A stretch of 64,000 bases of DNA from Candidatus Omnitrophota bacterium (GTDB lineage Bacteria; Omnitrophota; Gorgyraeia; 2-01-FULL-45-10): the NCBI GenBank assembly GCA_028699255.1, contig JAQVUX010000006.1:89928-153927 (forward strand), given 5' to 3'. How positions within the stretch are numbered: position 1 is the stretch's first letter; every line of letters begins with the position of its first letter. Position numbers and translations under genes: made by a program. This document shows, piece by piece, positions 25,684 to 61,308 of the stretch. Under the pieces are notes generated by a model. The model worked only from the letters and a program-made list of their open reading frames with translations, was not told the DNA's origin and did no database searches.

Positions 25684-25718
25684 GGTATAGATAACCGGAT
25701 TTCGAAGAACTTAAGGAG

Positions 25719-26969: not shown

Positions 26970-26978
26970 GGCGGTATA

Positions 26979-30128: not shown

Positions 30129-30209
30129 AGCGGAGATATCCGCGTATAGATTATCAAAGTCAACCACAGGCCAACCTGCGTGGTTGATCGCGTAATATAA
30201 GGGATTCCG

Positions 30210-33639: not shown

Positions 33640-36600
33640 ATGTTAGCTTGGCAAAGCAAGACATTTATTAAGGGCGGACTCGTCTCTAACGACGTGTCTG
33701 TTCGCGAGGAGCTCGGCAACGCCTCTCTCATCATGGACTGGAGAAGTCCGCACAATAAGTGGTGGATGAGGATAGTTGCCGTAACTCTGACCCTTTGCTT
33801 TATATACCAAGATGTGGTATGGGCGCAGGATGGACAACCCGTATGGTCTAAGCCGGCTAATGAGAAATGGGGACAGTCCCCTTCGGGGACAGTTCCCATT
33901 TCTTTAAATACTAATATAGCAATACCGAAAGACATAGCTACAACCAAAGAAGCATATAATGGTAGTAACAGTTCTTCCCCCAAGACCATCATTCAGATCC
34001 AGGACGCCCACGCATCTTTAGCCGCCCAGGAATCCATATCCTCGATACTCGACTCGTTAGTTACCAACTACGATCTTAAGCTCGTAGCTGTGGAAGGCTC
34101 ATCAGGCTACATCGATACCTCGATCTTAAAGACATTCCCCGACGAAGGAATCCGCAGGAACACCGCAGAATATCTTATGCAGAAAGGTAAGATGTCGGCC
34201 GGAGAGTTCTATTCGGTTACAAGTAACAAGAATATCGCTTTATACGGCATAGAAGACAAAGATTTATACAAAGCTAACGTTGAAGAGTTCAAGAAGATAT
34301 ACGAGGCTAATCAGTCTGTCCGGAAAGACATCACAGGTCTTATAAATACCCTCAAAGCCATAGAAGACAAGGTCTACTCCAAAGAGTTAAAAGCCCTCGA
34401 GGATAACTCCGTATTAAACACCAACGGCAAGGTATCTTTTACAGACAGATGGGCGTATATAAGCGCTCTTGCCTCAAAGGTCGGTATAGATATAAATGGA
34501 AAAATGTCCCAGTCCAAGGGGACAGTCCCCTTCGGGGACAGTCCCCTTTTTCCCAACCTTTCAAAACTCGTCGAATCTATAAAGCTTGAAAAAGAGATCT
34601 CCTTCGATAAGGCCAACAAAGAGCGCGATGCCTTAATCGACGTCTTAAGTAAATCGATAACTAAGACAGAATTGGAGAAGCTCGTATTAAACTCCCTCTC
34701 ATTCAAACAGGGCAAGATAACCCAGGGCGAATACTACGTATTCCTCCAGGGACTGGCCAATGACAACAACGTATCACCCTTAAAGTACAAGAACCTCATA
34801 AACTTCACCGACTACATCACCCTCTATGAGTCGATAGACTTACTCGAGATATTCGAAGAGGCTAAAGTATTGGAAGATGCCATCAAAGACAGGCTCTACA
34901 CTTCCCCCGACCAGAGGAAGTTACACGACCTATTGAAGTGCGCTAACTTTATCAAAGACATCTTCGATCTTAAACTTACCAACTCCGACTTCGAATACTT
35001 GGCCAAGAGCTTAAAGACATGGAATGCGGATACGATTGCCCAATTCATTGAGGAAACAGGTAACCGCGTAGGTTACACCTCCGGTAACCGCGTAGGTAAC
35101 CTACGCGGTTGTACTGGTGACGATGGTTACGACCTCGATAACATCTTCTCGAATCTGCCCATAGCCATACAATTCTACAATACCGCGGAAAGACGTAACA
35201 ACGTCATCCTGAATAACACCATATCCCGTATGAATAAAGAAGGCCAGACAGTAGCGGCCCTTATCACAGGCGGCTACCACACCAAAGGTATATCCGAGCT
35301 ACTAAAGCAGAAAGAGACCTCCTATTTAGTAATATTACCTAAGTTCGACGCCTCAAAGCCTGAAAGGCCCTACGTAGCTATACTGACCAATAAGAAAGAC
35401 AACTATGAAGAGCTATTGGAATCGGGTAAGTACCAGCTATTAACCGATAACTACTTAAAAGACGGCATCCAGGACCCCAAGAAGATAGAAGGCTTTATTA
35501 AAGAGATAGTGGTTGTATCCATAGGCCAGGCGGCCATAGAGCGTAAAGACATCGCCAGTGTCAAGAAGCTGTGGATCGAGAGCTATCGCAGGTCGTACGA
35601 GGCCCTTATGGAGAAGGGGATAGTAAAGAAACCATCTTCCGAACCTGGTGCGGCAGAAGGTTCCAGCGAAAAGTTTTCCAAACCAGGTTTGGGCAAAGGA
35701 AACCGTTTCTACAAACCTGGTTTGGAAAGCCAGGAACAAGGTTATGGCGACCAGCATATAGCGACGACGACGAACTTTAGTCCGGTTGCTCTCGAGAAAT
35801 TTATTCAACTTATAGACGATATAAATGCCATCCGGATTAGCGATGCTGTGGCGGTTGTAGAGCTGGGCGATACGCGCTGGACGATAGCGATATCAAGCGA
35901 TAACACGATAACGCGACGTGAACCAACGCCCGCTGAGCTACGAGGATTTAATTCGCAACTGAGAAAAATCGCGTCGCAACCCGCTTCTACCGAACATGTT
36001 CCATCCGCCGCGCAACGTGTCAAAATCCTTGAGGGCACGACACGGGACTTATTGATCGACGCTATCGTAGAAAGAATGCATGGCGTTTCCACTGAAGAGT
36101 CGTTCGACGACGCTGTCCGCGGGAAAACAGCCTATACGAATTTGACCGTAGACGGCCAAAGAGAGATACGGCAAGCGGTTATGAATAGATTTAAACCTAT
36201 CGAAACCGCCCAAAAAGTTACTGTCGTCTCGCGTATTCCCGAAGCGTTCATAACAAGAAACGCTCAAGCGAAGAAGAATAAAGAAGAGAGAAGAGGCAAG
36301 ATCGAGGTAATAGTAAAAGACGCCGGTCAAGACGGCATTACTATAACAAAAATCCTTTCTCAGCTCACCGCCCAAGGCGTTACCGTAAGCCGTTCTACCG
36401 TATTTAATGACCTGAAAGAATTAGCCGCAAAGAGCGACGCAGTGATCACGATTGAAAAAGCCAGCGGTAAAGCGAATATATACAGGATTAGACCTCAAGC
36501 TACTCCGGTGCCGGAAGCCGCACCTATAGAAACGCCGCAGGCTGTAGCGCCTGTAGCGGAAGTTACTCCTGCGCCTGCAGTCGAAGCCGCACCAGCTCCG

Positions 36601-39600
36601 GAAACTCCAGAGCTGTCCCCGGAAGAAATCAGCCAAGCGGTAGACGAAGGTTTAGCCAGGCTTACAAGGCAAAATGACGGATTTGAACATGCGCTTATAA
36701 GATCCAAATTTACCACAAACGCCGAAAACAAATTACTCGCGACAGTAGAAATTTTAGTGGATAGCCGCGGAGTGCCGCGCTACTTAGCGGATGAGAAAAA
36801 CACGATATCCGATGAAGAGAGAAATACGCTTACCGAGGTTGCCGTAACAGTCGACGATACGGGAAGAATAAATCCAGAGACCATTGAAGTCTCGTCCCCA
36901 GAGAAATCAAAATTATCAGACCAGGCAAAAACAACACTTCAGCAAATAACCGCTAAATATAACAAACAACTGCCGTCTTCATTGCGAATAATCGCAAAAA
37001 GAGCCGTTTCCGCCGTAACCCATTTTATGGAGAATGCGTGGAGCGCGGCGAAGGAACATTTAGAAAGCATCTCCCCTGAACAAAAAAGAGTATATCTTAT
37101 TGTATTTATCATGGGAATTGCGGGGGTAGTTTCGGCGCTTATGTTCACATATTTGGCGTGCATAGGTAATTTAAATATTTCGCCCGTTAGTCTGCGTACC
37201 ACTGAAGGCGGTATCAATCTGATAGCAGCATTAGGGATTTCGGCTATTATAAGGAAATCAGCCGTCTCGCGTATTCCCGAAGCGTTCATAACAAGAAACG
37301 CTCAAGCGAAGAAGAATAAAGAAGAGAGAAGAGGCAAGATCGAGGTAATAGTAAAAGACGCCGGTCAAGACGGCATTACTATAACAAAAATCCTTTCTCA
37401 GCTCACCGCCCAAGGCGTTACCGTAAGCCGTTCTACCGTATTTAATGACCTGAAAGAATTAGCCGCAAAGAGCGACGCAGTGATCACGATTGAAAAAGCC
37501 AGCGGTAAAGCGAATATATACAGGATTAGACCTCAAGCTACTCCGGTGCCGGAAGCCGCACCTATAGAAACGCCGCAGGCTGTAGCGCCTGTAGCGGAAG
37601 TTACTCCTGCGCCTGCAGTCGAAGCCGCACCAGCTCCGGAAACTCCAGAGCTGTCCCCGGAAGAAATCAGCCAAGCGGTAGACGAAGGTTTAGCCAGGCT
37701 TACAAGGCAAAATGACGGATTTGAACATGCGCTTATAAGATCCAAATTTACCACAAACGCCGAAAACAAATTACTCGCGACAGTAGAAATTTTAGTGGAT
37801 AGCCGCGGAGTGCCGCGCTACTTAGCGGATGAGAAAAATACGATATCCGATGAAGAGAGAAATACGCTTACCGAGGTTGCCGTAACAGTCGACGATACGG
37901 GAAGGATAAATCCAGAAAACATCGAAGTATTTCATGGGAAAGAATTATCGGACCAGGCAAAAACAACACTTCAGCAGATAATCGCTAAATATAACAAACA
38001 ACTGCCGTATTCATTGCGAATATTTGCAAAACGTGCGTGGAATGCGGCGAGAGAAAAGCTGGGATCCGTATTAAGCATACAAAAGATCTCCCCGGATTTC
38101 CTTGCCCGCACGATATCTTACACATTAGCTGGGTCTTTAATACTCGCACTTTTTGTATTCTGGCAACCGGCCGCTTTTACAGGATTTGTTCACAATGTTG
38201 AATGGTTCCTCGGAACCGTTGTAAGCAGTACCTCGCTGTCCTATCACGGAGTAAGCCTTTCTGCCGGCAAGATCATGCTGGCATTATCTATGTTCGAGCT
38301 TGTCGCGACTCCTATCACGCTCGGACTTAAAATAATGCTTAAGAGGGCGGGGATGGCTGAAGATGTGCCGGTGGTTGATGCCACTTCCACAGCAGATGAG
38401 ATCAATGCGGCGATGAAGGCGCGTTTTGGCTATACGGTAGATGAGCTTCAGGCGGCCATGGAAGCCCAAGCGCTTAAACGCGCCACCGGTGAGCAGGGGG
38501 AGGTAGCGCTTAAAAAGATACGCGCGCTGTTTGAAGGCTTCGGGCATGATAAGTGGCAGTTGCTCCGAACTTATAAATTACTCGAATCGGGATGGTTCGA
38601 CACGCTGGGTGTTCTCGCGGCGGCAAGCAGGCGCCAGCGTCTCGGCCCGGTACTTAATTTCATCAACAATATGATAAACCCGATCGAGCTTTTAAAGATA
38701 ATATACGGTTTTTATCCGGCATTCTATCTGGAAAAGATAAAGCGATCGTTCCAGTCCGGAGGGGCCGAGCTTTTACAACTTAACGAAAAGCAGGCAGAGC
38801 AGGCTATGCCCATGTTTGGGACCTCTGACACGAGAGAGCTTGTTCTCGATATATTTGCCCGCTCTGTAATGCCGCGTATAGGCAATACCAAGTCCGTTTC
38901 ATCTTATATGTGGACCGGCGGTTTGCAGTATGTTTCAGCCGTGTGGGCCGATTCCATATATATTAAAGGAACATTGCAATTCATAAAAGCGCGGCTTACG
39001 CTCGCGTTCGCAAGCAGAGTAGGCTCGATCCTCATACTTACTCCGCTATCCTGGATGTTCAATCTGAACGGTCAATGGCTCGCCGGCGCCGCTCAGAAAT
39101 TCTTTAGCGGGCAGATGGGCCTGCAGTTGCCGGTGCCAGGCGCTGTGCCGGGCGTAGCCAATCTCGCGTCGAACGAGAATTTCCTATTCGGTTTTATACC
39201 GGGCATAGCGAAAACCATGGCCCCGATAAATTACGCCGGAGTAATGGCGCGCGAATTCATCATTTCCGGCGCGGCAAAACAGCTTACCTTGGCCGCCGTC
39301 GCGGGAGCATTCTCTACTACGTTTGTTCTTCGGATATTTGCCGGCGCTCGAAGGCTGTACAGTGATTATAGACAAACAGGGAAGATAAATATAGCCAAAT
39401 ACATGACAACTGCGGCTATTGTTGCCATGGTTATGAGTATCGGAAAATCTACATGGGGTATGTGGTTGGTCAATGTCGAAATACCGATGGTATTAGGCCA
39501 GGCCGCAGTTGCCGACAGGGTTATGTTTGGGCAGGGCGGCGGCACATATTTACATGATACACTGGCCCTTGTAGAAGGCCATGAAGGCGCCATAGGTGTA

Positions 39601-42600
39601 GGTAATACGATTTTTGACAGGACGCTATCCATGCTTGGGATAGGCGCGCCTGTTGCGGAACAAGCGCCGGCGCCGGCTACTATACCGTCTGTGCCTCAGG
39701 CGGAAAAGGCAGAAGCCGCGAAAGTTATTGCGCCTACTGTTGAAAAACCTTTAGAGATCGCAAAGCCGGTTGTTGTTCCGGAAAAAGCGGCAGTCAAGTC
39801 CACTGTTGCTCAGGCACCAGCGCCTTTACGGGAAAAAGAATTGGCTCAGACGCCATCCGCGCCGATCACGGAAAAAGCAAAGCGCGTGACGGTTTTCAAA
39901 CCGGTCGCGGTTACTAAACCTGTCGAAGCTTTACCGCCGCGTGTAGAGTCGTCTGAGGCAAAAACCCGTGAAGCCGCCTTATCAGATAATAGATCTCGCG
40001 GCGCTCTCGCATACAAAACCGAGATGGCGGCCTACGATGCGGCAAATAACAACAAAGATTATAGCGGAGCCTTTGCTCACCTCGACAAATCCATAAATAT
40101 TATCGAGGCACTTATTAAAAATGGTAATAGCGACTTACCCGGCATGCTGGCGCAATTAAAAGCTACCCGGCAGGATCTTTTGCAAAGATACGCCTTCGGC
40201 GATCCGGATGGATATAAAAATACAATCGCGGCGTATATTGAAATAAACGCACGCTATGATAGCGATCTCAAAAAATATAATGCGGCGGCCAAGGCGGGGA
40301 ATGCCAAAGATGCGTTAAAATATGCGACTCTATGCGCGAGTGAAATCAGAGAGATGTTAGCCGCCGGAGCCGCCAAGCTTTATCCACAACTTGAGAGGGC
40401 GTCCAAGAAGTGGTCGGATATTGAGAATTATCAACGTACGAAATCCGCATCTCCTGTCGTAAAATCGCAAGAAACCGCAAAAGTTACAACTAAGGACGAG
40501 CTCGCTGAAAATGCCATCCAATACTGGGCGGAGTCTCAGATACTTCGCGGCAGGTATCTCGAGGCCATACAAAAAACAGCTAATCTTAAGGCAGAGTACG
40601 ATAATTACATTAATAAGTCCATTAAGTTGAGAGGCATTTCTCCGGTTATAGACGCGCGTCTGAAAACGCTCGCCGGTGAAATCGCGGCCTCGCAAAGGGC
40701 AGAGAAGAACGCTTTGAAGGCCATGAGCGCTTTAAAAGACGCCGCCGAGAAAAAGGAGGCGGATATTAAGAGTTTTCGGTATAAAAATCTTCTCAAAGCG
40801 TATAGCATAGCCAATGACCACTACGCAAAAGCGGCAGGCGACAGGGAACTTGCCCTCGAGTATCTCGAGGAGATGATAATCATAGCCGGGAAGATGGCGC
40901 AATTATATGATAAAAATGCCGATGTAAAAGAACTTCTGAAGCAATTACAGGCCCGCGTTCCGGTGAGATACCCTATTCTTGCCAATTCATATCTGAACGT
41001 TATCAGGCAACTCACATTTGCCAATAAAAATGGCAAGATTGATTCCCTAACTCTGCAGAAAGCGTCGTTCAAGCTCAACAAAGAGATATTGAAAGAGCTT
41101 CAAGCTATTAAGACCACTCCGAGATTTGTTCGGACCAGAGAAGAGCGGCTTTATGATGGCCGGGCGCTGGGAAATGAAAAAAGTGAATGGCCGCGTCGGG
41201 AGATCAAAGATATCAATGAAGAGATAAAAATAATCGAACAGTTTGTGGCAGATAATGAAGCGAAGTTAAGGGCGAAAGACCTGCAGTATAAGTTTTTGAG
41301 GGGTGAAAAGAGCTTTTCTGATTATAAAAAAGAAGCCGCCGCTATATTTTCCAAATTCGGATTTAAAATATCCATTCCAGCACGCGAAGCGGACGCGCGC
41401 TCCGCAATAATCGAAGACGCAATAGTAACAGAACAGATAGCCGCCTCGAGTGTCAGAAGCCAGCTTCAGGAGATATCGGAAGAGCTGGGAAGGCGGACAT
41501 TGACTCCGCAAAATAAAGGGTATGTAAGACGTGATAGTTTAAGGCAGGCGATACAAAGCAGGTTGGACGAGGTAAACGGGCGCATAAAATCTTTGCAGGT
41601 TGCGGAAAAGGCCGTGAAAGAAGGCAAGCCATTACCGAAAGGCTTGGATCTCCCCGTTATAGAACTTGAAGAGCCGAAAGCTGACATGGCTAAACTAAGG
41701 CCGCTACTTGTCGAGCCCACCGTAGAAATGCTGGGTATCCCACACGCGCCGGCTGAGCTGAAACCTTTCGTGGCAGATATTATAAAGCAGGGGCTCGGCA
41801 TTGATAATCCATCCGATAAGTCCATCGATATCCTGGCTCATCTCTTTAGCCGTTATTTTGAAACGCATTATTTTGTGCATGCGGATGAAAGAGCTCAATA
41901 TTTCAAGCTTATGACGGCGATCTTGCGAGAATTGAAGGCGCAGGGTTTCTTTGAGAGCCAGGAAGTATTATTACCCGGCGAAGAGATGTCGAGCATGTGG
42001 AGCGCGAATCTTTCGGGCCCTGTTTCCAACTCAGAAGTGCAATTATTAACTAAAACATTTCCTGAAAAACGAAGTGAGTTGAGCGTTATAAACCGTCTGG
42101 GGTTTGCCAGCAGTATGGCATGCCATATTATGCGAGTGCGGTATATCGATAACAGCGCTCCGGACAATCTTCTCAGCGACTTACAGGCTGTTCCAGAAGG
42201 CCAGATGGATAATTATGTAAAACTGTTAGTGTCGAACATATTGAAATTAAAACCCAGGATGGAAAGTGCTATAGGCATGTCGGTAAGCATAAGCAGTCTC
42301 GGCAGGACGGGTTGGGGATGCGTCATGAGCGCGGCCGTGTATTTATCCGCCGCCCGTAGCGTGAATCTATCGCCGGTCATAAATTCGGGCAAAGACCGCT
42401 TTGATGTTCGCGGCCTGGTTTTCCCGTCTTTTGGTATAGATGCGGATAGCGTCCCAAGCAGTTGGCTTAAAAAAGCCGTAGGCCCCGGCGGCTCTATAAG
42501 AGAGAACGCAGAGTTCTATGGGCCAGATAATGATAAGGAGCGTATTTTAATAGGCCCAACATTTGATAACGCCGATCTTAACATGATACCGGTGAGTATA

Positions 42601-45600
42601 ATATTAGGAAAGCGCGCCGAGCAAGGCGCCATAGAAACACTTACAAACTTATGGAATTTTAAGGGCATCTATAGGGTTGATGATAATGTGTCGGAAGCTA
42701 TAAGAATACGGGAAATATTATCTGTCTATCTGGAGTATATGGGCGAACCGAGTGACGCGGAGATTGCCGCAAGCCCTGAGCTAAGAAATGAATTCGCCGA
42801 GTGGGATAGGATAATCGCGCAATCCAACGATCCATATGTCAGGCAAAAAGAAATGTCGGCTAAAGACGAAGCGCGTCAGGAAATGCGCGATTCTATATTG
42901 CTCGGAAATGCTATGTACTGGTGGGAAAGGGCGAGGAAAGAAAGACATGATTTTTCCGTAGCGGAATTCAGAGAATTAATGAAGCAGGTGAAAGCGGACA
43001 GCGTGGATGCCATACAGATACTAAAATTAATACATGGCAAAGACTATCAGCCGGATTTCCACAGAGCGGCCGATATGGGCTGGCTGATATCGTATTCACT
43101 CCCGCGGCTTTTAGAATCGAAGGAATCGGCTGATAAAACAGTTCCTGCGCAAGGGCCGGTTTCCCCGCGAGGCATGAGCCGCATAGAGGCTTTTAACCTG
43201 CTTCTGGACGCGGATAAAGACGGTAATTTAAGAGATTTGACCGAGAAGTATCTGGCCAAAACCGGATCGTTGGTTAATTATGGCAAGCTTACCCCAACCG
43301 CCCTTCTTGACCCGCAGGTATGGGGGAAGATACAATTTTTAGCTTCTAATTATCTTGAAGGCAAAGAAGCGCCCTCTGCCGTAAAAAATTTCGCTGGTAT
43401 GGTCAAGGCCAGAATAAGGATGATCGACGCCGCCGAACGGCTGGGACAGACAAAAGATAAAGTCATATCAGTATACGAAGGTACGCGGGAAGAAGCGTTA
43501 AAGGCGTATATAAACAGTCAGGAGTCGGCGCACCGTAGGGTAATGGGCGCCAGGCCGGTAAGCGACGCCATGCGTAGGGCATGGGAGAAACGTTTTGCTT
43601 CCCAGTGGGACCTGTACCATACTATGAAGAAGGCCTATATTGAAACAAAAGCGTCCGAATATAAGAAAGACGCCGGTGTTTCTGATGTGCCAAAAGAGCT
43701 ATTCAGCATATGGGGCAGTGAATTCCCGGGTATGTATTGGGAAGGCAATCTTTCTTCCGAAGCTGAAAATTTTGAAAAGAAGGCAACGGAAAAACAGGTT
43801 GAAAAAGAAATTATTGTAAGGCCTCCTACGGAAGAAATAAAGAGTATTAAAACACCCGTTGCAAAGCCTGCCGCCCAGCCGGCATCAGAAAAAGGCGCGC
43901 AAACCATACCGGCCATTCCGTCGTTTGCCCGGATGCTTTTTAACGCGTTAATAGGCCAGCATCCCGCAAATATAGACTCTCTTGCGCCTAAAGATTATCC
44001 TGTTTGGGGCATATCTACGGCAGATAATCCTGAAAACCCGGAGCAGTATGAGGAATTAGGCGCGCCCATCGGCTCTAAGGACAGAGCTAATAAAGGTTAT
44101 CCGGATAAACAGATTATAACCCCATATGCCGCAGTCTTGGCACTTGACTGTGCTCCAAAGGAGGCGGTAAGGAATATAACCCAGATATTAAACAGGTACC
44201 CGCAGGCTATAGGTAAATATGGCCCGTATGATTCCATAGATCTTAAAAGCGGGGCGGTATCTAATACATATGTAGCTGATAACAAAGGCATGGAGTTTAT
44301 AACAATAGCGAATTATTTCAGCGGCGGAGCAGTACAAAAATATTTTTCCGGGAGTAGCATTGTTAAGCAGGCTCTGCCGCTTCTTAATGAGAATTTTAGC
44401 CGGATGAAGATGCCGGATGGATTATCGTTAGAAAAAAACATATCAAAAGAAGAGAAGGAAACCCTGCTTAAACTCGAAAAAGCGGCATGGGATTATTTTG
44501 CGGATAATTCCAACGCATCGACGAACTGGCTCCCGCCGAATAGGATAAATTCCGGAGAGTCAAAATCATACACTTCGATTACCAATATAGGGCTGTACCT
44601 CGCCGGCATAGTAGCCGCTGAAAAAAGAGGTTACATTACATCCGACGAGGCCAAAGACAGATTATCAAAAGCACTCGATGCTATAAGCAAATTGGATACA
44701 TGGAATGGGCTTTTTAGGAATTATTATGATTTGGGGACGCTCAAATCTTCTACGAAAAGCGATAGGCTGATATCACCTGTCGACAACGGATGGCTCGCCG
44801 CAGGCCTTATAGTTGCTGGTGAGGCGCATCCCGAATTAAAGGACAAAGCGCATGGCGTAGTGACCGGTATGCAATTCGGCCATCTTTATGATAAAAATGC
44901 CGGTAACCTTGTAAATAATTACGACGAAAATAGCGGCCCCGCATCTTCGCATTATGGGCTTATCTATACCGAAATAAGGCCTACCCTTATCATTGCCATA
45001 GGACTGGGAAAATTAAACAAAGATCCTTCGGTGCCGATAGTCCCCGAAACCGCATGGCATAGCACCGCAAGAACGCTCCCCGCCGATTGGGACTGGCAGG
45101 CTCAGCGGCCGGACGACTCATATTATTCGTATAAAGTAAACGTGAATGGAAAAGAAGAGACGGTTTGTTTCGTCCCGTCGTGGGGCGGCAGTATGTTTGA
45201 AGGATTGATGCCCAATCTATTTATCGATAATAAGATTTATTCGCCGAAAGGGTATGCGATACAGGATGCCGTGTATGTATTCCTGCATAAATATTTCGCG
45301 ACAGGCGCTTCCGCGCAAAAGGTTGAAACCCCGGTAACTCAACCGGTAAAAGTTGCTCCCGCGGAAAAGCCTGCCGTCGCCGTACCGAGTCCCGAGGCTA
45401 AAATACTGCCGATTGTTACCCGCGAACAAGCCGTATCTCAGGAATCATTAGTTTCAGGTGTGCCGCAAACGCCAGAGTCACCACTGGTGATACCAGGTTA
45501 TATAAGTGATGCCATAGCGGGGGCGAAACCCGGGAATACAGCCGATGAAGGTGTCGAAGCCGTTCTTAAGCTAAGAGAGCTTCTAAGCATATTGGCGGAC

Positions 45601-48600
45601 GAAAAAGTATTCTCGATAGCCGATGAAGGCGGCGCTTTTGATAATGCGCTGATAAGTTACGAGAAAAAGAGATCCGCGGAATTGAATAAACTGTTTAAAG
45701 GCAATGACAAATTAGCGAAGAGCGTTTTGCGGGAAGAATTGAAGAACTTTGCCGTTCAATACCGGGGAGGTGTAATAAATTCTACCGCCAATACCTTCTT
45801 CTTCGATCTCGGCATATCGGATCCCGGGGTTGTGGAGAAGATCATCCGAGCGGATAAATATATAGATATGGTGGGTAAAAGCAATAAGCACCCGCTTAGC
45901 GCTCCTGAGGTAGGGAACTGGAGGAAAGAGTTCCTCGAGAGGGTATATCTTACAGAGGCCGAGAGAAAGCTGAATGAGGATCCGAAACGTGAGCTTCTGA
46001 TAAAACGTATGGGCGAAAGAAAAGACCTTGATGATTGGCGCGGCAGTAAATTATCCGGGAAAGCCGGTGAAGCGTATCGGTACATTTCGGATCTTTTCAG
46101 GTTAATTGCTTATCTTGAGACAGCGGCCATAGATGTTTCCGAAGATATAAAGAAGGAGGAGAAGGTGCAAGAAGGCCGTCCTGTCGATGATTATGCCGCG
46201 TTAAATACGCTTTTAGAGGCATATAGGGCGACAGGAAAAGCGATCCCGGCTATTGAGGTATTAGCGGCTAAGACACAGAGTGCCGATTTCGCATTCTGGA
46301 GAAGCGCGAGGGATCATATAGAAGAGCTCGAACAACTAAAAAACACACTTCTTACAGAACAGGATTTCGCGAAACGGCCGGATGAAATAACCCGTATTTT
46401 AGAGAAAGCCAAAGATCTTCGCTCTTATGCCAAAAAAGATCCGGTTCGCGGTCTTTTAATACAACAATTTGTCGATTTAGCCGATCCCGAAAACCCCGCA
46501 AAAGCGATAACCGCTGATGATAAGAAAACGTATGTCAATGAATCGCCTTCTAATATGGCATTTGCCAAAGTTAACGCATTACTCCTCGGTATGGATCAGG
46601 TGATCAAGATGATGAAAAAAAACCGTGCGGAAGAATTAAAAACAATGAAGGAATTTTCGGATACAATGTTCGAAGAGCGCATTCGCATAGCGGAAGAGTT
46701 GAGAGCGCATGAGTTAAAAGCCTCGGAGTTCAATGAAGACTGGCAAAAAAATAAGACAGGGTGGGCAGGCAGGGTCTGGTCCAGGATGTTTGGGAGTAGC
46801 GCCGAATCCCGGGCCATAGAGGCTGAGAGAAAACGGTCTGACGATTTTAGGACAGCCCTGTATGATTATTCCGTATTGTACAACTGTTATTTATCGAGGC
46901 AGAAGACGCCGTTTGAAACAGCGATCGCCGAAGCGCAGTTCCTATATGAAAAACTTACAAAAGAACGGACGAGGGAAAATATAGCCGACCTTGAATGGTA
47001 CGAAGCCGCGAGGGCGGCCAAGAAAGAATTATTTTATAAAACATACCTGCAGATGGTTTCGAAATCTGTCGGTCGTGAGTTAAAAGGCGGAGATTTGAGT
47101 TTTATGTTCAAAGAGATAACGCTCGATCCTTATATGCGCAGGCAAAAAGATAATTATAAGCAAAAACTTGGCAACGATTATCCGGAGAACGTCAAAGAGC
47201 AGATGGGCGAGCGTTTCGTATCGGACAAGATAGCCGAATATGTAAAGTTGGAAGCGCTTGTGATGGAGCTTGAGGCAAATCTCAGAAAAAACCAGGAGAT
47301 ACCTGAATATGCCCCGCAGTTCAGCCGCGGTATTACTACGGCGACGTATATGGAATATGATGAAAAGAATATGAGTTATGATGAAAAAGCCCGGAATATT
47401 CGCGAGTGGTTTAAGGATGCCTCGCTGTGCCAGCGATTTGCCAAAAAATACCTTGGGTACTATTTCGGTTACTATACGCTCCAACATGTGGTCAGGACGA
47501 TGCGTGAAGATGACAGGGCGACCCCTGTTTTATTTGAGAAACCAGACCGCGCCGAAGCGAATTTTAAATCCAAATATTCTACCGATCTCGCATATAAAAA
47601 TTATGGTCCGCGGCTTAATAATATGCATGACACCGGATACGCTCTCAGGGTTACTTTCGACGCGGTAGATGATAACAGGTATGATCTCTTATTGAAGGAG
47701 CTGGACAGAATAAACGGCGGGAAAGCGTCTGGTGAAATCAGGATGGTTCGTGATGAAGCAGTTGAACGTCTTGGTAGTTTCCACAATGAGTTGGCTAAAT
47801 TGCTCCTGCGTTTTTACAATAGCAAACCGCGCGAATCGGTTGAACGGGATGTCACGGAGCTTGAGAAAGAAGCTCTTGCGGGAATAATCGAAAATCTTAC
47901 GATAAATCTTGAAACCCGTAATAAAGAATATGCAGATGCGAATAAAAAGATTTGGGAGAACGCGGCGGAGAGACAGGAGCTTATTAAGGAAGTGCGCCGT
48001 AATAGGAAGCGCGGATACGATAGTCTTGAGAGGTTTGACCGCACAAATACCGTGGGTAGGCTATCCATAGAGATGAATGATGCGTTGAAGGTGGCCAATC
48101 GGGTGATGCCGCCGGACGCTAAAATATCGATAAATCAGGAACGGATCGATTATTTCGTGACACAGTGCATGGAGAGCGGTATGACGCCTATGGAACAGGT
48201 GGATATCGCTTTTATAAAACCGCAAGCTTTACGAAAAATATACGTTGAGATATTTGGTAAAGAGCCGACCCCGCATCAATGGGAGGACATAAGGTTCTAT
48301 GTTGAATCAAAAATGGACCTTGATGGCTGGACTGAAGATAATGTCAGGGTATGCATAGTATATGGGGAGTATATCAGGGAAATATATAAGACCCTACCGG
48401 GCGCGCGTCAACCGAATGACGGCGAAACGAAGATGCTGGTCGAGCATATGCTAAAGAACGGAATCCTTCCTATTAATACTAATGTCCGCGAGATGAACAT
48501 TGAGCCGAATCGTATCACAGTCAAGGCGCTTATCGAAAAACGGCTTGCACCGGAGCGTGTTATAAAACTGACCGCAGATATATTGACTACGCTGGAACGC

Positions 48601-51600
48601 AAAGAATATGGAAAGCTTAGCGGCGAAGAAGAGTTTATCAATCAGGTTTTCTATCTTATGGGTTATGTACTGGACACAAATATAGTGGAGAAGCCCGAGG
48701 ATGCAAAACCTTCGTATAATAAGGAAGCTTTGGTAAAGAATATCGGCGATAGGCTTAAAGGTCTAAATATAGAAGGATCCGGCTATACCACCCAGGAGCT
48801 TGCCGGTAAGATAGTTGATAATATTATAAATAGAGGACTTCAAGCGGATAATTTTCCTGCGCTCGTCGATCGCCTTTTACAGATGAAAACGCGTATAAAT
48901 AAAGTGGACGATATTATCAGAGATAAAAAAACGAAGGCTAAGAGTGAGGGGAGAGAATTCGAGTTTAACGAAGAACAGCGCGCCGATATAGTTCCGATAA
49001 GCGAAAACGACCTGAACATCCTTGCGGTTCTGGATGATAGCCGGCAGAATAGAAGTGACGGTATAGGCATAGCGGAGATAGCCGGATTCAAGCGCGATTC
49101 TTCTGCCTGGAAACGACTGAAGGAGGACGTTAAAAAACCTATAGATGCGTTATGGGGCGGTTTGCTTAATAGTGAAGCCGAATCCCGCTATAACGCGATC
49201 CGCGGAAAAATAATAGACGCGGCATTCGCAAGATATAAAGGTAAGTACACCAAAGAGTATCTGGGTAGTATGGTCGACAGGCTGATCAGGGCCGGATTAT
49301 ATACCCCGGAAGGCGAATTGACCGAAGTAGCAAAAATAGCCGGACTGCAAAAGGCAGTCCTTTCTATGCGGGGCGTAGAACCATCCAGTGATACCGAAGA
49401 GCTTAAGAGGCAATTAGACAGGATCAGGGATAACGCGCCGGAAGATATTCTCGAAAAGGCCGAACTGGCGGCATGGCAAAAAACAGCTCAGCTTTTCGGT
49501 GTTTCCGATATTGCCGCTACCAAGGTTGGCATAAAAGAGCAGTTAGCGGCCCGTCTTTTAACGCTTGAGAAAAATATTAAAGAAGCGGCGGAGCTTGCGG
49601 GTTTACGCGCTCTCGCGACCGAAGAATTTGGTATAAATAATCCTGGCCGGAATATCATAGAAGCTACAGATCAGATTCAGCGTTCCGCCCGAGAAAATAA
49701 AGTGCCGTTCGTAAATGAATCGGAATATCTGGTGGACCTGCGCGCCAAGGCCGGCGCTCTTGGCGTAACGACCAGGGCCGGAGCTTCCAATGAAAAAGAA
49801 TTACTGAATAAGGCTATAGCCGAAGCGGAAGAAAAACTACCCCGGACATTAAAATATTATGCCGATAACGCCTTCCTGCGCTATTTCGCCGCGGAGATCG
49901 GGGTAAGCGCAAAATCCGGCGATGAAACATCTGTAAGAAAAGAAGCCGCCGACGAAGCCCGCGCAAAAGCTGAGGTAATGTTGAATGAGGCAAAATTAGA
50001 AGGACTTAAAACGGAAGCGCGGCTACTCGGGATCACGTCAGCCGATTCTGATGCGGAAGGACTTCAGGCGCAGATCGATGCCGAGGCAAGATCGATCAAA
50101 ACAAAGGAATCCGAGGTATTGGATAAAGTCAAGACGGGACTTTCTGTTGACAGTACGGCCATGTTTAAATCGATGGCGAAAATAGGTATTATTAGCTCAG
50201 TTGTTACGCTGTCACTTTCGCTTTTAGGGTACGTTATCAGAAATCTTCGTAAGTGGCTGAATCTGTTACGCGCGAAACCTCAGGCGGCAGAACAGCCGCA
50301 AGAGGCCGCGCGTGCGGCTGTTCCAGCTCCGCAGGCTGTACCGGTTTCGCCGGGCGCGCCAATCGAGCCGCAAATCGCGCCGACCGCACCTGTTCCTGCG
50401 ACCATAGTTGACAACACAAAAAATACGGAGCGCAAATTCTGGTCAAAAGGACTCTGGGACATGTCTTTCATGATGATGAAGCTGAGCGTACAAATCTCTG
50501 TTGCGTATTCACTGCTCTTCAAAGGGCCGGTGTCGCCTTTTGCAGGGTGGGCTTTCAATTTCGGCGCCCTCGGAACATTTTTAAAGTCAGTATGGGCATA
50601 TTTCTTTACTTCAGGGATAATTGATTTTGACAGTTTCGGCGTGTTTTTGCAGTCAGCAAGCCACGATTTACAAGCATTGGCTCCATTTGCCGCGGTAGGC
50701 CTGGCAATAGGAGTGGTAACTCTTATAATGAATCAGGTTGTAAAATACGGACGGCAATCAGTCGGTATAAGGATTTTAAAAGAAAAACCGGGATTTGCGG
50801 GCACTCTGCACTTAATCGCTAAGTCCGCATTTCTTGCCCCCGTGCTTGCGTTTGCCAGCTACTTTTTCATATCAAAAGGCAATCTAATCGCGACCTCCGG
50901 CGCCGGAAACGCTATATGGTTATTCAGCTCTCCGGTTATCGTGTTAGGGGCTATTTTCGCCATAATCTATGTAAGTAATAAACTTTTGATAAAGGCTTTC
51001 CCGCGCTCTTCGACACTTAGGTCTATTTCGGTACTCGGGATCACTGTGGCAGGTATAGCAACGATCGCTATGTTTCTGCCGGGTGGATTGTTCTCGAATT
51101 TTGCCAATGTATTCACCTTCGGCGTATATGCTTATATAATAGGTAAGTTCAGTTTCAGGACGTTCGAATTTATTTCGTCAGCCTTACAGATACCCGCCCG
51201 TTTCGTATGGGATCGGGAAGGCGAAAAAGCCTGGAGCAAAGAGGCATTATGGGACGGGTGGAAACATTTTAAAGGATCGTTGAACAATTTTGTGTTCGAA
51301 GGTGTTCTATTCTCCACCACGATGGTTTATGTTTTTGTTACGCAGAACATGTTCACAAGTGTAGGATGGCTCGTGGCCCTTGGCGCGGCATTGTATTACT
51401 ACTCCAATAATAGCGCCGCGTCTCTTACGGCCGGGCAGGTATTTTATATAGGCAAGAATTTTGTAAAGACGACGTCATTTGCTCTATCTATATATTTCTT
51501 CGCGCAGATAGGTATCGCTCTGAGCGGAGGCGCGGCAGTCGCGAGCATATCGCAAAATCTGGGCTATATCGTTCTTATTACAGTGATCAATATATTTGTC

Positions 51601-54600
51601 GATACTCTGCGCAGAAGTATTTTTGGTAAAGATTACATAGGCACGCCAAAAGAAGCGGTAATAAGCAAAACCGGTAAGGGTGATGCGGAAAACACCGTTG
51701 TCCAGGTACAGAACACCCGCAATGAATACGGCGAAGCGGTTATTTCCTCGCTCGGCGTCCTTTTCAGAAGTTTTGCGAATAATCGTTCGGCGGTTGGATC
51801 AGCCATATTTACAAGTGATACGGCGCAAGGCCCGCTTAAGACGATGGAGCTTATACTTGCCAGTATGGAGCAGTTACGACATGGCGAAAGTAGCGCTTTT
51901 ATAGCCGGCAGAAACAACCTGCCCGGGGTGACCGGTCCCGCCCATGGCAAAAAATGGGGCGGGTATCAGCAGTTCTTCGTCGCCCTTTATTTCGGTTTTA
52001 TGCATCATATAGCATATACAGGCAGAGAAAATGACCAGAGGGACCAGATATTTGTGTATGAAAAAGGCGGTAAAAAGTTCTTCGGAGAACACCTGAAGAA
52101 TTCCAGAAGGACCTACGGGGATGATAGCGTAAGAGATTCTAACGATAATATAAGGGAAGTGCTTATCGAAGAAGAGGATTGTGATTTCTATATAAAATTA
52201 AAAGAGGGAGATAATAAGTTTGTTTATGAAGAGATAGTCGTCGTGGATAATAATAACCCTTCGCAAAACCTTACCGGCGTAGTATTTGATACGCGACATT
52301 ATCTGATCGATTGCGAAAATAAAGATAAGATATTGCGTGTAGTCGCGGACGGAATATTTGAGTTTAAAAAAGATGTGGAAAACTACAATGGTAAACCCGG
52401 CGCATGGGTGTTGGTAGCGAAAACCGATCAGATAAAATTAACAGAAGATGGTTATCTGATAGATCCGGAAAATGCGGTCAAAGATATAAAAGATTTTTAC
52501 GGGAATATTTTGCCGAAACGAGTAAGACCGGCTATAGTTCAGCAGGTCACAGGTAAAGACATAAATGGCAACAGGCGCGTTCTGCGGCTTGAAAAGACCG
52601 GAGATATTATCGATCCGATAACCGGAAAGAAGGCTGGAACCATATTCGATAAGTCGGCTCAAAAAATGTATTACGGTGTGGACGCAAATTATAATCGCAC
52701 AAATCTGCTCATGACATCAAAGTTATTCAGGAAAGGCGAGTGGGAATACGTTGACGACACAACTAAGGATGCTGTAAGGGATACAACAACAGGCATAATA
52801 TATAAAAAAGGGCCATATACCAATCTTGCTATGGATAAGAACACCGGCGCTATGTTTTTGAAATTTGCAGGCAAGACGCTTGATTTTGGCGACGGCAGGT
52901 TGATACCTCTGGAAAGAGTGAGGGCGTTTAGTCCGGAATCCGTTAATCCGCTTGTCGATAATATTATAAAACGCCGGGGCGAATTCCTGATCCATGGTGA
53001 TAATCTTGTAACCGATAATAACGGGCAACCGGTAAAGGTTAAGGATTTCTGGGGAGAAGATGTGCTGATATCGCTGGATAATGCTTATGTTGACAGTCAT
53101 GGTAATCTTATTCATTCCAATGTAACGGAATTACTCGCGGTAAAAGAAGCGTGGGAGATAGATCCTTATACCGGTGATGCGGTGGTTAAGGGGAGCGGGT
53201 TCAGGGGAGACGGCCATATCCTGGCGGCGAAAAATAAATGGGTTGCGGATAAAGACGGGAAATTATATGCCAGAGGTATTACTCAAAGCGAGGCCGATTA
53301 TGCCGCAAAGACAGGCGTGTATGGACTTTTGGATAAACTTAATCTGGGCCTGACAGGGGTTGAGAATAATTGGTATATAGAGGATCCGGAACATCGCCTG
53401 CCGCTTGCGGGATATCCTGTCCAGAGAGTAAGGAACGGCTGGGTTGTTAACGAGGGCAAAGGATTTTCACTCGACGCATCAGGTAATGTAGTGTACACAC
53501 CAAATTGGCTTAGGGTCGGATGGCTGTCGGACGAGACTTTCGGCGAATTACCCGCCTTAACAATACCTGCAAGTAACGTAAAATCGATATCGAAGGACAT
53601 TACAAAGATAAATTACGCGAAAGACAACCGCCTAGAACATATAGAAATTCTCGCAGATTTTGGCAGTTATTACAAGGATGATAAAGGTAGTTATTATAAA
53701 CGCCGCAAAGTTGGATATTTAGATGAAATAAGCGGTGAGCCGGTATGGTATGGTGAAGCTCCCCCCGGAACGGTTCGTTTAGATTTAAAAGGCGGCTTAT
53801 GGGTGGACACGCCCGATTCATTGGATTTGACCGCATGGGCCGGCCGCGGTTATGAAATAGGTATAGCGCAGAATGGCAACCTGGTGGCTATTAAAGCCCT
53901 CGCCGATAAGGCAGAATACGAGATCGACCGCGTTACGGGCAATGCGCGTATCACCTCCGGCGCGAACAAGGGACAGCAATACAGGGTCGGCACATTCTTA
54001 AGAGTTGGGGAATACGGTTCTTACAGATTTATCCTTTCGCTGGAACCCCGCAAGACACAGCTTCCTTACGATATTTATCCGGACATTCAAGGCATAGGCG
54101 CCGATGGACTTATTTCCTCCGACCATCTTATGGCAAATCCAACGCTTATGGAGTATCTCGTCCAGGCGCCTCAAAGGCCGCGGGCTATAGACCAGACGGA
54201 TAGTGAAAACGAAATAATGGATAATGATACCGCGGAAAAATTGAGTGTAGCGGTCAGAAATCGGGAAGGCTTCGATCCGGATAAACTTTATTACACTATA
54301 TTCGGCATTCTGCAAAGAGAGCTGTACATGACGAATGCCGGTGAGTCGGAATACGCTTATCTGGGCGGCACGGCGCATGATATGCTTAACTATATAGCCG
54401 CGATGAATAAGTGGAGCTTTGAAGAATCCTCCGCATACGGGAAAATGTTCGATGTTCTCGGTATATACGCCCTGAACGTTATATTTACGGAAGCCATACC
54501 GCCGTTCGCGCGCTGTCACGATCACTGGGAGGCGTTGAAGGCATATGCTCTGCTTCTGCCCGGTTTCTGGCGCGATAAAGAGAGGTTTGTCGGAGACGAA

Positions 54601-57600
54601 TACTTGTCCCCGAACATAGTAAAGATGGCTCAGGTACAAGGATGGATGCCCGGAGACATAACGCTCTTTTATTACGAGATATCGGCATTGAAGGTTATAT
54701 TGGACGCGCTCAGCGGTTTGTGGCCGAAAGCAAGCCGCTCCATAGATGATCTGCATGAGAAACATCCGTTCTCGGCCGGTTCAGGTAAGGCGATGTCGAT
54801 CATATTGTACGGCGCTTTTGGAACGCTCGCCTTCGCTGTATGGCTTATGGCCCTCGGCGTAGTCAGTGTATTGGTGCCGGGCTTGCGCGAAGCCCAGGAC
54901 GCATGGCGCTCGAACCTGCTTTTTGGTATCGTTATGTTAGTCATGATAGAAATATCGAAAGCTGTGATATCCGGCATAAAGAGATTATTTGAACAGGAGC
55001 GCAATGATTATATCGTCCGGCTGTTTGGCAAAGATATAGTTATAAGCAAGGCGCTTGTAAATCTTATCTTCACGGCTTTCTTTGTAGCACTGACGATCGA
55101 TGTCGGATATTTAGGGTTGAGTCCGCTGATTTCCAAGACGATAGCGCCTAATATAGCGAGCGGGAAGAGCGTCGTAGGCGATGCGGCCGCATATTTTGCC
55201 ATAGCATTCGGCATTACAAATGCATTGATTTATTTTTGGTCCATGTCCGTCACGGCTTTAAAAAATAACAAAGCCATCCGTCGCGCCCCGATTTTATATC
55301 AACCCGGGAAAGATAAAGCATATAGCTGGGCCAAGTCCGTAACGCGGTATTTGATAATTCCGGCGATTTTGGCCTCCGCTATGTTTGCCATAGGACATTT
55401 TTTCCCTGACCATTCTCCACTGGCGCTAATTCGGGACCAATTTGTACATCTGAAATACGTACCTTCCGCGAGATTCGTACCGGCTCTCGTAAATATGATT
55501 TTCTATAATATAGTACCTTATATCTTGCCGTTCTACCTTATAATGGGAAACCTGTCATCCATAGCCGCGAGATATCTGGAAAAGAAATTCGGATGGCAGT
55601 TACTCTATGTGAATACAGATATCTATGATGTGTCTTACAAAGCGCAATGGGAAACATTAAATTCTACAAACCTGCTAATGGTATGGCTTTTCTACCAACC
55701 GATGGCATTCTTTAAATCACTCTTTGTGGTAGGCGTAAAAAGACTGGAGCCGGCCTGGGTAACAGCGGCAAAATTAGCTCTCGAATATTCCGGAGGATAT
55801 AAGCTCTGGGAGTCGTGGACCGGCAAAGATTTCAAAGTAAACAAACAGATGCTGTTTGCGGTCATACCGGCTGTGATATTTGCTTGTTTTACATGGAAGA
55901 CCGATTCATGGTTCGGCTATACGATGTATGGTATCTGGCTGGCGTATATAATCTGGATATCCGGTACGCAAAAGACGCCCACAGCATTAATATTGCCGGT
56001 AGTCTTTTCATTGACACTGCTTTTGGCGACCGCTGTCATGGGACTCGATTCCTCGATAGTCTTAATGGGATTCCCAATCTATATATGGTCGTTCCTCTTC
56101 GCCCCGTATAAAAACTGGACGACCGGCATGTTCGGAGGGTCGCCTCATTATAGCACTAACTCAATGGTGGAAGCCACGCGCCAGATCAGGGTGTGGGAGC
56201 AGAGATACCTGTTAGGCATGGGTAAGCCGGTTGAAGATAGCGAGGCCGTAAAGAAAATAATCGGATTAGATAAGTTCTTCAGGGATGGCAAGAACGAGCC
56301 TACAATGCTTAACCAGAGAGATAAGTTACGACTATTGCTGTTCCATCTTACAAATATAAACCTTAATATAAATCCGATATTTGAGCAGTATATAGATAAG
56401 GCGCTTGAAGCCCGCCGGCCGGAGGAAGAGGCGCGGTTGAGAACCAAAGGATTTATAGTAGAATCCCGCAGATGGCCGAGATTCCAGGAGTTCGATAAAT
56501 CGCGCGAGAGGGCTTTTGCGATATTGGATGAGTTGCGTGGCAACGCGGCTCTAAGAACGCAGTACGGCAATGAAAAACTGGAACAGCTTATTAATGAAGA
56601 AAAGAACCGCTGGATATTGCGTGACGCTGTAAATAAGGCGATCATCCGCCGCGCGCATGAATTGGCCGGGATAAAACGTTTACGGGAAAAAGATTGGGAT
56701 ACGCTTTCCGTCCTGACGCGTTTGGAAATATTGCTGGAATTATTGAAATCAAAAGATATTGATGTGCGATCGGCCGCGGATAACGCGCTGACAACGCTGG
56801 GCGCCGCGGATAATAGAAATGTTGCCGAAACCACAGCGCTTATGAATGCGCTCGCCGCAATAATAAATCGCATGGGGCCCAGGGCTTACAATATTACGGA
56901 TTGGGAAAAACTTCGCCGCTCCGAGCAATCCGGTTTTATTAATTCTGTGCTTAAGTATTTTTCAATTACGGGAGCACGCGCCAAATATATTCGTACTTTA
57001 TCAAAACCATTCCGAAAGTCCACCGCTCCGGCGACGTCGCCGGTAGTTATGAAGGGCGGCGTAGAGGGCGGCAGATATGAGATCGTCACGGCAGATATAA
57101 TAGACGGCGCTATACAGAACTATAATGGTGTCGGATATGAAGATACAGATACAAAATTAAGGCAGGATCTGAATAATGCCATAAAGCGGATTTTTACGCT
57201 TGATGGATTTTCTGAAGAAGCAAAAACTAAAATAGCGGCAAAGATTATGAGCCTTTTAGGCGATCAAGCCTCGATAAACGCATTATTACAAAATAAGAAA
57301 CTTAGGGTGGTCGAAGGTAACGATCGTCTTATGCATTTTACGGAAAGCGCCGATACGATAACGCTGGATATAGACGCGCTACTTCATAATAACGACCTGT
57401 TATTCATGGAATTGGTCCACGAACTCTTGCACGCTAAACTCGCGGCTACCCAGACAAGGGCGGGTCCCGCGGCGGATCTCGCTACGCGTATTCAGGAAGA
57501 GATAGAAGTTACCACACAGGAAGTAGAGTTATTCCTCGCGTTCCCCAAAGATGCTCAAGACAGGATCCTCGCGGCATTGGCCGCCGACAACGACCTCGAC

Positions 57601-61077: not shown

Positions 61078-61118
61078 TTTAGGATTTGTAACAAGGGTAG
61101 GGAGATTACCCTAACAAA

Positions 61119-61171
61119 CCATCCCCGTTTCTTGAGGGCTTTTGCCAAGCGGTCTTCAAGAGCGGGGATGG
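61119..61171 (+). terminator. Imperfect hairpin CCATCCCCG...CGGGGATGG downstream of giant gene 1 (weak T-tract)
   Basis: 9-bp perfect outer arms with longer imperfect stem, 41 nt after stop. Confidence 0.4.
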
Positions 61172-61207
61172 ACTATTTTAAGGTATAAAATAGTTAGATT
61201 TACCATA

Positions 61208-61235
61208 TTGACATGCCGATTTAATATGGTATAAT
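61208..61235 (+). promoter_or_regulatory. Consensus sigma70-type promoter TTGACA-16-TATAAT upstream of second giant gene
   Basis: Hexamers at 61208..61213 and 61230..61235. Confidence 0.5.
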
Positions 61236-61259
61236 TATGTAAACGTTAAAAAAGTTATA

Positions 61260-61281: not shown

Positions 61282-61308
61282 ACAGAAGACTTGGCATAAG
61301 GAGGCAGT

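Follow-up and report, generated by a model that had tools for sequence, protein, structure and literature searches.

We show that a 64,000-nucleotide stretch of a Candidatus Omnitrophota genome (contig JAQVUX010000006.1 of assembly GCA_028699255.1, positions 89,928 to 153,927 of the forward strand; the whole of this stretch is hereafter called the window) encodes a glycoside hydrolase (GH) domain whose chain order is circularly permuted, with the last third of the canonical domain placed first and the first two-thirds second. The domain lies inside a single protein of 9145 amino acids, and its sequence indicates a GH193-like rather than a GH189-like enzyme with active-site residues that look intact. 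We favor, with fair though by no means high confidence, the reading that it is an active, inverting, endo-β-1,2-glucanase-like module, circularly permuted and probably located outside the cytoplasm. We infer the substrate, the stereochemistry, the cellular side and the role within the giant protein, as well as the activity itself, the last by homology. The domain family is already known, and NCBI labels orthologues with it; the new part is the permutation.

A GH193-like glycosidase domain in a giant protein

The original prediction for this region, made from the sequence, had proposed an (α/α)6-barrel glycosidase, either glucoamylase-like or of DUF3131/GH144 type, at positions 43960-45300. All the peptides it quoted lie in frame 1 of that interval, inside an uninterrupted open reading frame (ORF) for the 9145-residue protein, and the interval essentially coincides with the domain as we delimit it by homology (residues 3450-3889; nucleotides 43987-45306). 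The Pro/Ala/Val-rich flanks described on either side are present as well (residues ~3388-3430 and 3890-3947). The proposed families proved to be exactly those matched in a Pfam scan of the domain, PF10091 (Glycoamylase; E 8e-19, 68.4 bits against a gathering cut-off of 27) and PF11329 (DUF3131; E 3e-9, 37.0 bits against a cut-off of 20.3), and the barrel call is borne out by the nearest solved structures, which are of β-1,2-glucan enzymes and include the GH144 entries 4gl3 and 5gzh. Our analysis refines that call in two respects: sequence comparison identifies GH193, not GH144, as the closest CAZy family, and it reveals a circular permutation that the earlier reader missed.

The relatives of the domain belong to the SGL clan (clan GH-S), which comprises GH144, GH162, GH189 and GH192-194. 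Among PDB sequences searched with phmmer, the best match was the cyclization domain of the GH189 enzyme TiCGS (8wy1; E 6e-33, or 1e-33 once the query had been de-permuted as described below), followed by Agrobacterium Cgs (8rf9; E 4e-20) and the GH192 enzyme EeSGL1 (8xuj; E 6e-10); further matches were GH144 "putative glucoamylases" (4gl3) and CpSGL (5gzh). An HMMER scan of 1.84 billion representative proteins returned 3238 matches at E<=1e-3. Scores of this order are well outside what chance would give. The best 120 relatives in a search of 5.8 billion proteins are ~450-700 residues long, come from Elusimicrobia, Omnitrophota and Bacillaceae, carry the names "glucoamylase family" or "DUF3131", and each cover ~60% of the query per BLAST segment.

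Several lines of comparison place the domain closest to GH193. The founding member of that family (Group 2 of the SGL clan) is SkSGL (Sked_30460) of Sanguibacter keddieii, an inverting endo-β-1,2-glucanase (PMC12102758), whose sequence we took from Data S2 of that paper. De-permuted, the query aligns with SkSGL at 30.6% identity over 474 columns (E 3e-49), while its identity to GH144 and GH192 enzymes is only ~16-20%. One of its canonical homologues (P0040) is in turn 82% identical to a Fictibacillus protein in the SkSGL-group file of the same paper. Together with ~50 invariant columns shared with canonical sequences and the absence of both the GH189 nucleophile and the GH189 insertion, detailed below, these alignments lead us to regard the domain as GH193-like and not GH189-like.

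The chain order is circularly permuted

BLASTP alignments with canonical homologues were not collinear: with the query counted from residue 3400, positions 48-185 matched subject positions 331-461, and positions 197-488 matched subject positions 42-316 (the two E-values being 1e-65 and 3e-27). The phmmer matches to PDB chains were swapped in the same manner, the C-terminal part of the chain falling on the front of the query and the N-terminal part on its back, and the two Pfam families, both matched in part, follow each other in reverse along the protein (PF10091 profile positions 107-217 of 221 first, PF11329 positions 4-142 of 367 second). We de-permuted the domain in silico by moving residues 3441-3592 behind residues 3593-3890. 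The resulting sequence is collinear from end to end with 14 canonical secreted homologues of ~450 residues, and its HMMER alignments to 8wy1 and 8rf9 run unbroken across the artificial joint. The two swapped matches and the collinearity after rejoining therefore identify a circular permutation.

The domain consists of two segments held together by a new junction (coordinates in Table 1). Segment A, the canonical C-terminal third, contains the motifs "YPVWGIST" and "KYGPYDS"; segment B, the canonical N-terminal two-thirds, terminates at the conserved "...FLHKYFATG". The junction joins the canonical C-terminus (...LLNENF in the query; "LL..E.FF") to the canonical first helix (LLKLEKAAWDYF in the query; "LL..IA.DTW.YF"). 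The cut site is the loop between the canonical helix "...NNRAAVEAQIHYA" (in the query, "...AIQDAVYVFLHKYFA") and "YPVWGIS". In place of the collinear GH193 order α1 to α12, the query thus reads α9-12, junction, α1-8, so that the chain begins and ends in the canonical loop between the eighth and ninth helices. This non-canonical order is a topological variant and no argument against homology. Within the searchable library, our literature searches joining permutation with these families retrieved no report of a permuted (α/α)6 enzyme of the SGL clan, and permutation goes unmentioned in the SGL-clan papers PMC12102758 and PMC10834661.

The predicted fold is a single (α/α)6 barrel

An AlphaFold2 (AF2) model built on an input alignment of natural permuted homologues has a mean predicted local distance difference test score (pLDDT) of 84 and a predicted template modeling score (pTM) of 0.89. 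Of its 12 main helices, segment A contributes four and segment B eight. The model predicts, with confidence, an (α/α)6 barrel, the fold of the SGL clan. Foldseek searches of the PDB with this model placed SGL-clan structures at the top (8xuj, that is EeSGL1, E 1e-8; 8wy1; 3eu8; 8xul; 5gzk), with other (α/α)6 barrels ranked below them. The TM-scores of these matches are only 0.35-0.45 over ~250-300 columns (up to ~420 for 8wy1), the expected outcome when a sequential aligner is applied to a permuted barrel.

A separate alignment in which N- and C-fragments were kept apart (A2) was discarded because MAFFT mis-registered the first half of the N-fragments onto segment A, pairing "WG", "YD" and "VDNGW" against "DNKGM" between the two. 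This mis-registration presumably stems from internal hairpin pseudo-repeats of the barrel, and it hints at a similarity among the barrel hairpins that would represent an ancient internal repeat.

Candidate catalytic residues are retained, and GH189 hallmarks are absent

We compared active-site residues in two alignments, one of the query with 16 canonical sequences (A1) and one of nine permuted-clade rows with tandem relatives (A3), deriving offsets in residue numbering from printed alignments. Published work on the SGL clan names its general acid, a candidate general base and clan-defining residues, and defines GH192-194 (PMC12102758); for TiCGS, E1442 is the nucleophile and E1356 the acid/base, with E1400 and H1536/H1537 also described (PMC10834661). 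In A1, the query and the canonical sequences agree throughout in about 50 columns, many of them aromatic or acidic; D3715, E3778, F3853 and E3854 are among these. The catalytic acid pair whose conservation the original prediction had suggested checking is in place, in that D3715 and E3778 match D160 and E246 of SkSGL. D3715 is invariant in both A1 and A3. E3778, which aligns with chain residue 353 of 8wy1 (that is, E1356), does not vary among the GH193-type sequences of A1 or the nine rows of the permuted clade in A3; the four distant tandem rows have Asp in that column.

Additional features of the clan can be traced in part. Clan members have a Phe near the nucleophilic water (F286 in XcSGL) and a Tyr that stacks on the glucose at subsite -3 (Y367 in XcSGL) (PMC12102758). 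In sequence alignments F3853, in "SMFE", falls on the Phe of TiCGS "TMFE", Cgs "SMFE" and EeSGL1 "AYFQ", and would correspond to this clan-conserved Phe. Several Tyr residues of segment A are invariant, Y3487 and Y3527 among them, and are candidates for the counterpart of XcSGL Y367.

In contrast, the features that distinguish GH189 are not kept. Where GH189 enzymes have their nucleophilic Glu, the query has T3460, other members of the permuted clade have Pro, Val or Ser, and canonical GH193 proteins have Pro. The His pair H1536/H1537 is missing as well: "AHHQGM" of 8wy1 aligns with "ADNKGM" of the query, which places Asp and Asn at the two positions. Moreover, a GH189-specific insertion of ~160 residues (chain residues 145-305 of 8wy1) has no counterpart in the query; a long α5 and extra helices between α4 and α5 are what separates GH189 from Group 2 (PMC12102758).

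By homology with the enzymes described in PMC12102758, the domain would carry out inverting endo-hydrolysis of β-1,2-glucan chains. E3778, as general acid, would pass a proton to the leaving oxygen by way of the 3-OH of the subsite +2 glucose, and D3715 would be the general base.

The permuted form defines a small clade

A scan of GTDB species genomes yielded 53 loci, three of which are collinear with the query. Two of them are from Candidatus Omnitrophota (L001 and L002; 51-53% identity) and the third is from an uncultured Planctomycetia metagenome-assembled genome (MAG) (L003; 37%). The 14.9-kb contig of L001 is a single open frame, and L002 has an ORF of >6849 residues. Beyond the domain itself, both share residues ~3900-5000 of the giant protein at 27-30% identity, and L002 also shares the N-terminal ~600 residues at 54%, which makes three collinear regions in all; by these alignments L001 and L002 are orthologous giant proteins with the same permuted arrangement. 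The Planctomycetia-labelled locus (8381-15262) encodes a 2293-residue protein with a signal peptide, in which arrays of ~70-residue repeats flank the permuted domain on both sides.

Among the top matches from the scan of 1.84 billion representatives, 10 cover the query from end to end in a single alignment; nine of them are single-copy permutants (P0121-P0126 and P0128-P0130). These nine cluster representatives are either giant-protein fragments or signal-peptide-bearing repeat proteins, and all those with a named source are Candidatus Omnitrophota. Their NCBI annotation is mostly "glucoamylase family" or "DUF3131 domain-containing", with one "peptidoglycan-binding protein". The cut site is the same in all nine and in L003, and the junction is conserved across the clade. 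In a neighbor-joining tree of de-permuted and canonical sequences, that is, a distance tree with no GH189, GH144 or GH192 outgroups included, the permuted clade is monophyletic (100/100 bootstraps) and nested within the GH193 radiation, between SkSGL with the Bacillaceae Group 2 sequences and canonical proteins of Elusimicrobia and Omnitrophota.

The tenth of these matches, P0127 (891 residues), and four further proteins (P0182, P0185, P0196 and P0204) are tandem duplications of the complete canonical domain, in the order N1-C1-N2-C2. P0127 is GH193-like; the other four are more distant (~25-27% identity) and are those with Asp at the acid-Glu column. The permuted-clade junction resembles the inter-copy junction of P0127. 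We considered P0127 as a direct ancestor of the permuted clade and rejected it, since its two copies are sisters (100/100 bootstraps) and fall outside that clade.

We propose that the permutation arose once, most likely by a tandem duplication whose two outer parts were then lost. The permuted form would then define a small clade, so far mainly of Omnitrophota, in which it is carried by giant membrane-anchored or secreted repeat proteins.

As a separate observation on the carriers, six of the permutants (L003, P0124, P0126 and P0128-P0130) are secreted proteins of 1000-2900 residues from Omnitrophota or the Planctomycetes-Verrucomicrobia-Chlamydiae group in which the domain lies between ~70-residue repeats with the motif "...A.GIA..LFTD.DAR..W..A..ITV...". 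In the giant orthologues P0121 and P0125, a similar motif stands ahead of the domain. Apart from one weak DUF6890 match, the repeats correspond to no Pfam family.

Function, location and alternative explanations

The proposal of an extracytoplasmic location draws on the signal peptides of the canonical relatives and of the repeat-protein carriers, and on the signal-peptide-like N-terminus of the giant protein; from these sequence features, the domain probably lies outside the cytoplasm. Several observations weigh against our interpretation or against parts of it. The domain drew no match in an NCBIfam scan, and the sole characterized GH193 member, SkSGL, is only ~30% identical to the query. 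Where relatives have the conserved motif "LDQGM", the query has "DNKGM", and the permuted clade varies at this site. The neighboring genes, in the window and around L003, include no β-1,2-glucan utilization genes. The GH189 relative in Cgs is cytoplasmic, and Kyte-Doolittle helix counts from the signal segment to the domain, made for the giant protein and for P0125, are of ambiguous parity, which would allow either side of the membrane. Finally, since P0127 represents a separate and recent duplication, a duplication route to the permuted form is no more than plausible.

The most serious alternative, which we consider unlikely but realistic, is that the domain is an active glycosidase of the same fold and mechanism with another natural substrate, such as a prey cell-envelope or S-layer glycan or an exopolysaccharide of the organism itself. 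The low identity to the only assayed family member and the lack of a nearby β-1,2-glucan gene cluster would fit such a substrate, as would the proposal that giant Omnitrophota proteins act on prey cell walls (10.1101/2023.11.21.568195) and the finding that Group 4 of the SGL clan is inactive on β-1,2-glucan. On the other hand, every characterized enzyme of GH144, GH162, GH189 and GH192-194 is specific for β-1,2-glucan (PMC12102758), and the ~50 residues, many aromatic or acidic, that the query shares without exception with canonical GH193-type proteins argue for the same substrate here.

We think it improbable that the domain is a non-catalytic relic or a carbohydrate-binding pseudoenzyme serving as a scaffold. 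Such a role could suit a protein most of which lacks recognizable catalytic domains, and it could account for the diverged "LDQGM" motif, but the catalytic Asp and Glu, together with VDNGW, YTEIRPT, SWGGSMFE and YG.YDS, are kept across the clade at 41-58% identity, and the giant orthologues are best conserved in two regions, this domain and the N-terminal ~600 residues.

Similarly poor prospects attach to a GH189-like transglycosylase or cyclase that would assemble or cyclize a glucan in concert with the glycosyltransferase-like C-terminal module. The TiCGS and A. tumefaciens Cgs domains do give the best PDB sequence matches, E3854 matches the CGS-conserved E1400, a GT-B module is present on the same polypeptide, and Cgs is also a large multi-domain membrane protein (PMC10901819). 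Against this stand the replacement of the nucleophile (Thr in the query; one of Pro, Val and Ser elsewhere in the clade and in canonical GH193), the loss of both His residues to Asp and Asn, and the lack of the ~160-residue insertion; furthermore, the de-permuted query matches SkSGL over its full length and TiCGS only in pieces, and the glycosyltransferase module of the giant protein is of α-glucan type, not GT84 or GH94.

An artefactual permutation, through mis-assembly or from two partial domains left over from a decayed tandem pair and unable to form one fold, is very improbable: tandem-duplicated relatives exist and the contig of the window was found in one Logan assembly only, but the cut site, the junction and the ends are shared by sequences from independent assemblies and samples (L001, L002, L003, P0121-P0130), only low-complexity linkers and no family remnants lie up- or downstream, and AF2 folds the segment as one barrel.

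Comparison with known systems

An inverting, GH193-like endo-β-1,2-glucanase module thus remains our preferred interpretation, and its closest parallel is SkSGL. The two share the (α/α)6 barrel, the candidate catalytic pair (D160/E246 in SkSGL, D3715/E3778 here) and similarity over the full length after de-permutation, and both lack a carboxylate at the GH189 nucleophile position and the GH189 insertion. They differ in that the query is permuted and forms an internal module of a 9145-residue protein, whereas SkSGL is secreted as an enzyme in its own right and ends in an Ig-like domain. With the GH189 enzyme TiCGS the query has in common the general acid/base (E1356), the neighboring E1400 and a place inside a very large membrane protein; unlike TiCGS, it has Thr in place of E1442, has lost H1536/H1537 and lacks the insertion between α4 and α5, and GH189 domains have the canonical chain order, are retaining and are cytoplasmic. 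GH144 and GH192 enzymes (CpSGL, 5GZH/5GZK; XcSGL, 8XUL; EeSGL1, 8XUJ) share the fold, the clan, the acid Glu and an Asp/Glu base candidate, but they are stand-alone periplasmic or secreted enzymes of canonical order.

A precedent for the permutation itself comes from the GH70 glucansucrases, whose (β/α)8 catalytic barrel is described as circularly permuted relative to GH13 (PMC11299179, PMC9732880). In both cases a natural, lineage-defining permutation of a glycoside-hydrolase barrel coexists with non-permuted relatives; the fold ((α/α)6 here, (β/α)8 in GH70), the clan and the chemistry differ. The carrier protein has its own parallel in the giant Omnitrophota proteins termed "Archaeovorins", which carry GT5-type starch-synthase domains (10.1101/2023.11.21.568195; 10.64898/2026.06.07.730766). 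It resembles them in its great length, its signal sequence and membrane helices, its PF08323 module and its Omnitrophota orthologues; unlike typical "Archaeovorins", it is at the small end of the size range, with 9145 residues, and has few recognizable domains. The text of the two preprints mentions no glucoamylase, DUF3131 or β-1,2-glucanase module.

If combined, these observations would portray a natural, lineage-defining permutation of an (α/α)6 barrel that had a single origin in GH193, hardly occurs outside Omnitrophota and has been taken into their giant envelope proteins as a conserved catalytic core, which possibly cuts periplasmic β-1,2-glucans (osmoregulated or cyclic) of Gram-negative prey or hosts. 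We offer this wider picture tentatively, as a possibility. Giant Omnitrophota proteins are thought to act in predation or host attachment, and the present analysis attaches a concrete predicted enzyme activity to one of the very few recognizable modules of such a protein. If the domain is active on β-1,2-glucan, this would point to periplasmic glucans as a target or a nutrient for these ultra-small bacteria. The coexistence of canonical, tandem-duplicated and permuted forms within a recently defined β-1,2-glucanase clan also offers a clean opportunity to examine the tolerance of a toroidal helical barrel to re-threading. For annotation, the permuted form matches both Pfam models only in part, is covered by BLAST to ~60%, and receives misleadingly low TM-scores from sequential structure aligners.

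The host protein and its genomic neighborhood

Table 1. Features of the giant ORF and of its permuted glycosidase domain (positions in the window)
Feature	Positions	Strand	Residues	Remarks
Giant ORF	33640..61077	+	9145 in total	Uninterrupted; from ORF list and translation; carries the domain
Upstream linker and lead-in	43800..43986	+	~3388-3449	Pro/Ala-rich; from translation; AF2 pLDDT <50 for model residues 1-17
Domain	43987..45306	+	3450-3889	Limits set by homology
Segment A	43987..44397	+	3450-3586	Canonical C-terminal third; four helices, taken as α9-α12; model helices at residues 60-147
T3460 codon ("WGIST")	44017..44019	+	3460	Position of the GH189 nucleophile (TiCGS E1442, "WGISE"); from alignments with 8rf9 and 8wy1
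New junction	44398..44463	+	3587-3608	22 residues, SRMKMPDGLSLEKNISKEEKET; from the de-permuted alignment
Segment B	44464..45306	+	3609-3889	Canonical N-terminal two-thirds; eight helices, taken as α1-α8; model helices at residues 168-453
D3715 codon ("PVDNGW")	44782..44784	+	3715	SkSGL D160, EeSGL1 D149, CpSGL E142; candidate general base
E3778 codon ("YTEIR")	44971..44973	+	3778	SkSGL E246, TiCGS E1356, CpSGL E211, TfSGL E262, XcSGL E239; general acid by alignment
F3853-E3854 codons ("SWGGSMFEG")	45196..45201	+	3853-3854	Glu aligns with TiCGS E1400; both invariant in A1
Downstream linker	45307..45480	+	3890-3947	Pro/Ala/Val-rich; from translation
GT-B fold module	57844..59739	+	~8069-8700	PF08323, E 8e-8; weak PDB match 9l6i, E 2e-7

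Translation and a hydropathy scan of the giant protein reveal a signal-peptide-like N-terminus (residues ~41-63; ...VVWA/QDG) and several hydrophobic blocks. The only other recognizable enzyme module is a GT-B domain near the C-terminus (GT5/GT35-like), which resembles starch synthase (PF08323) and, weakly, the α-glucan family phosphorylase 9l6i. Modules of this type are common in giant Omnitrophota proteins according to the two preprints cited above. At the site of the pyridoxal-phosphate lysine motif of phosphorylases, this module reads "EACGTSDQRSGMNGG". Six other stretches of the protein, scanned against Pfam at relaxed thresholds, gave nothing credible. The well-conserved N-terminal region (residues 17-606; window 33640-35460), which is 54% identical to L002 and 30% to P0125, has no Pfam match even at E<=1; its motifs "IQIQDAHAS" and "ITGGYHTKG" hint at a possible metal-dependent enzyme fold.

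The giant ORF also contains an internal duplication of ~240 residues (window 36229-36980 and 37267-38020; residues ~864-1100 and ~1210-1446), with a 217-residue identical run and ~90% nucleotide identity over 750 nt. Each duplicate comprises a winged-helix-like stretch, with weak FUR and helix-turn-helix matches in Pfam, followed by a Pro/Ala-rich linker. The duplication appears recent, or it could be an assembly repeat.

Directly upstream of the giant gene and on the same strand lies a complete resistance-nodulation-division (RND) efflux set (window 24013-33341) made up of an outer-membrane factor, an HlyD-type adaptor and two AcrB-type pumps, from which it follows that the organism has two membranes, that is, that it is a diderm. 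The 2.9 kb downstream of the giant gene (window 61078-64000) contain no ORF of >120 residues and no Rfam match at gathering thresholds. Farther upstream than the RND operon are genes for a ROK-family regulator and a tetratricopeptide repeat protein, and an ORF for an IS200/Y1-type transposase (PF01797) is located near the start of the window, at 1431-2105.

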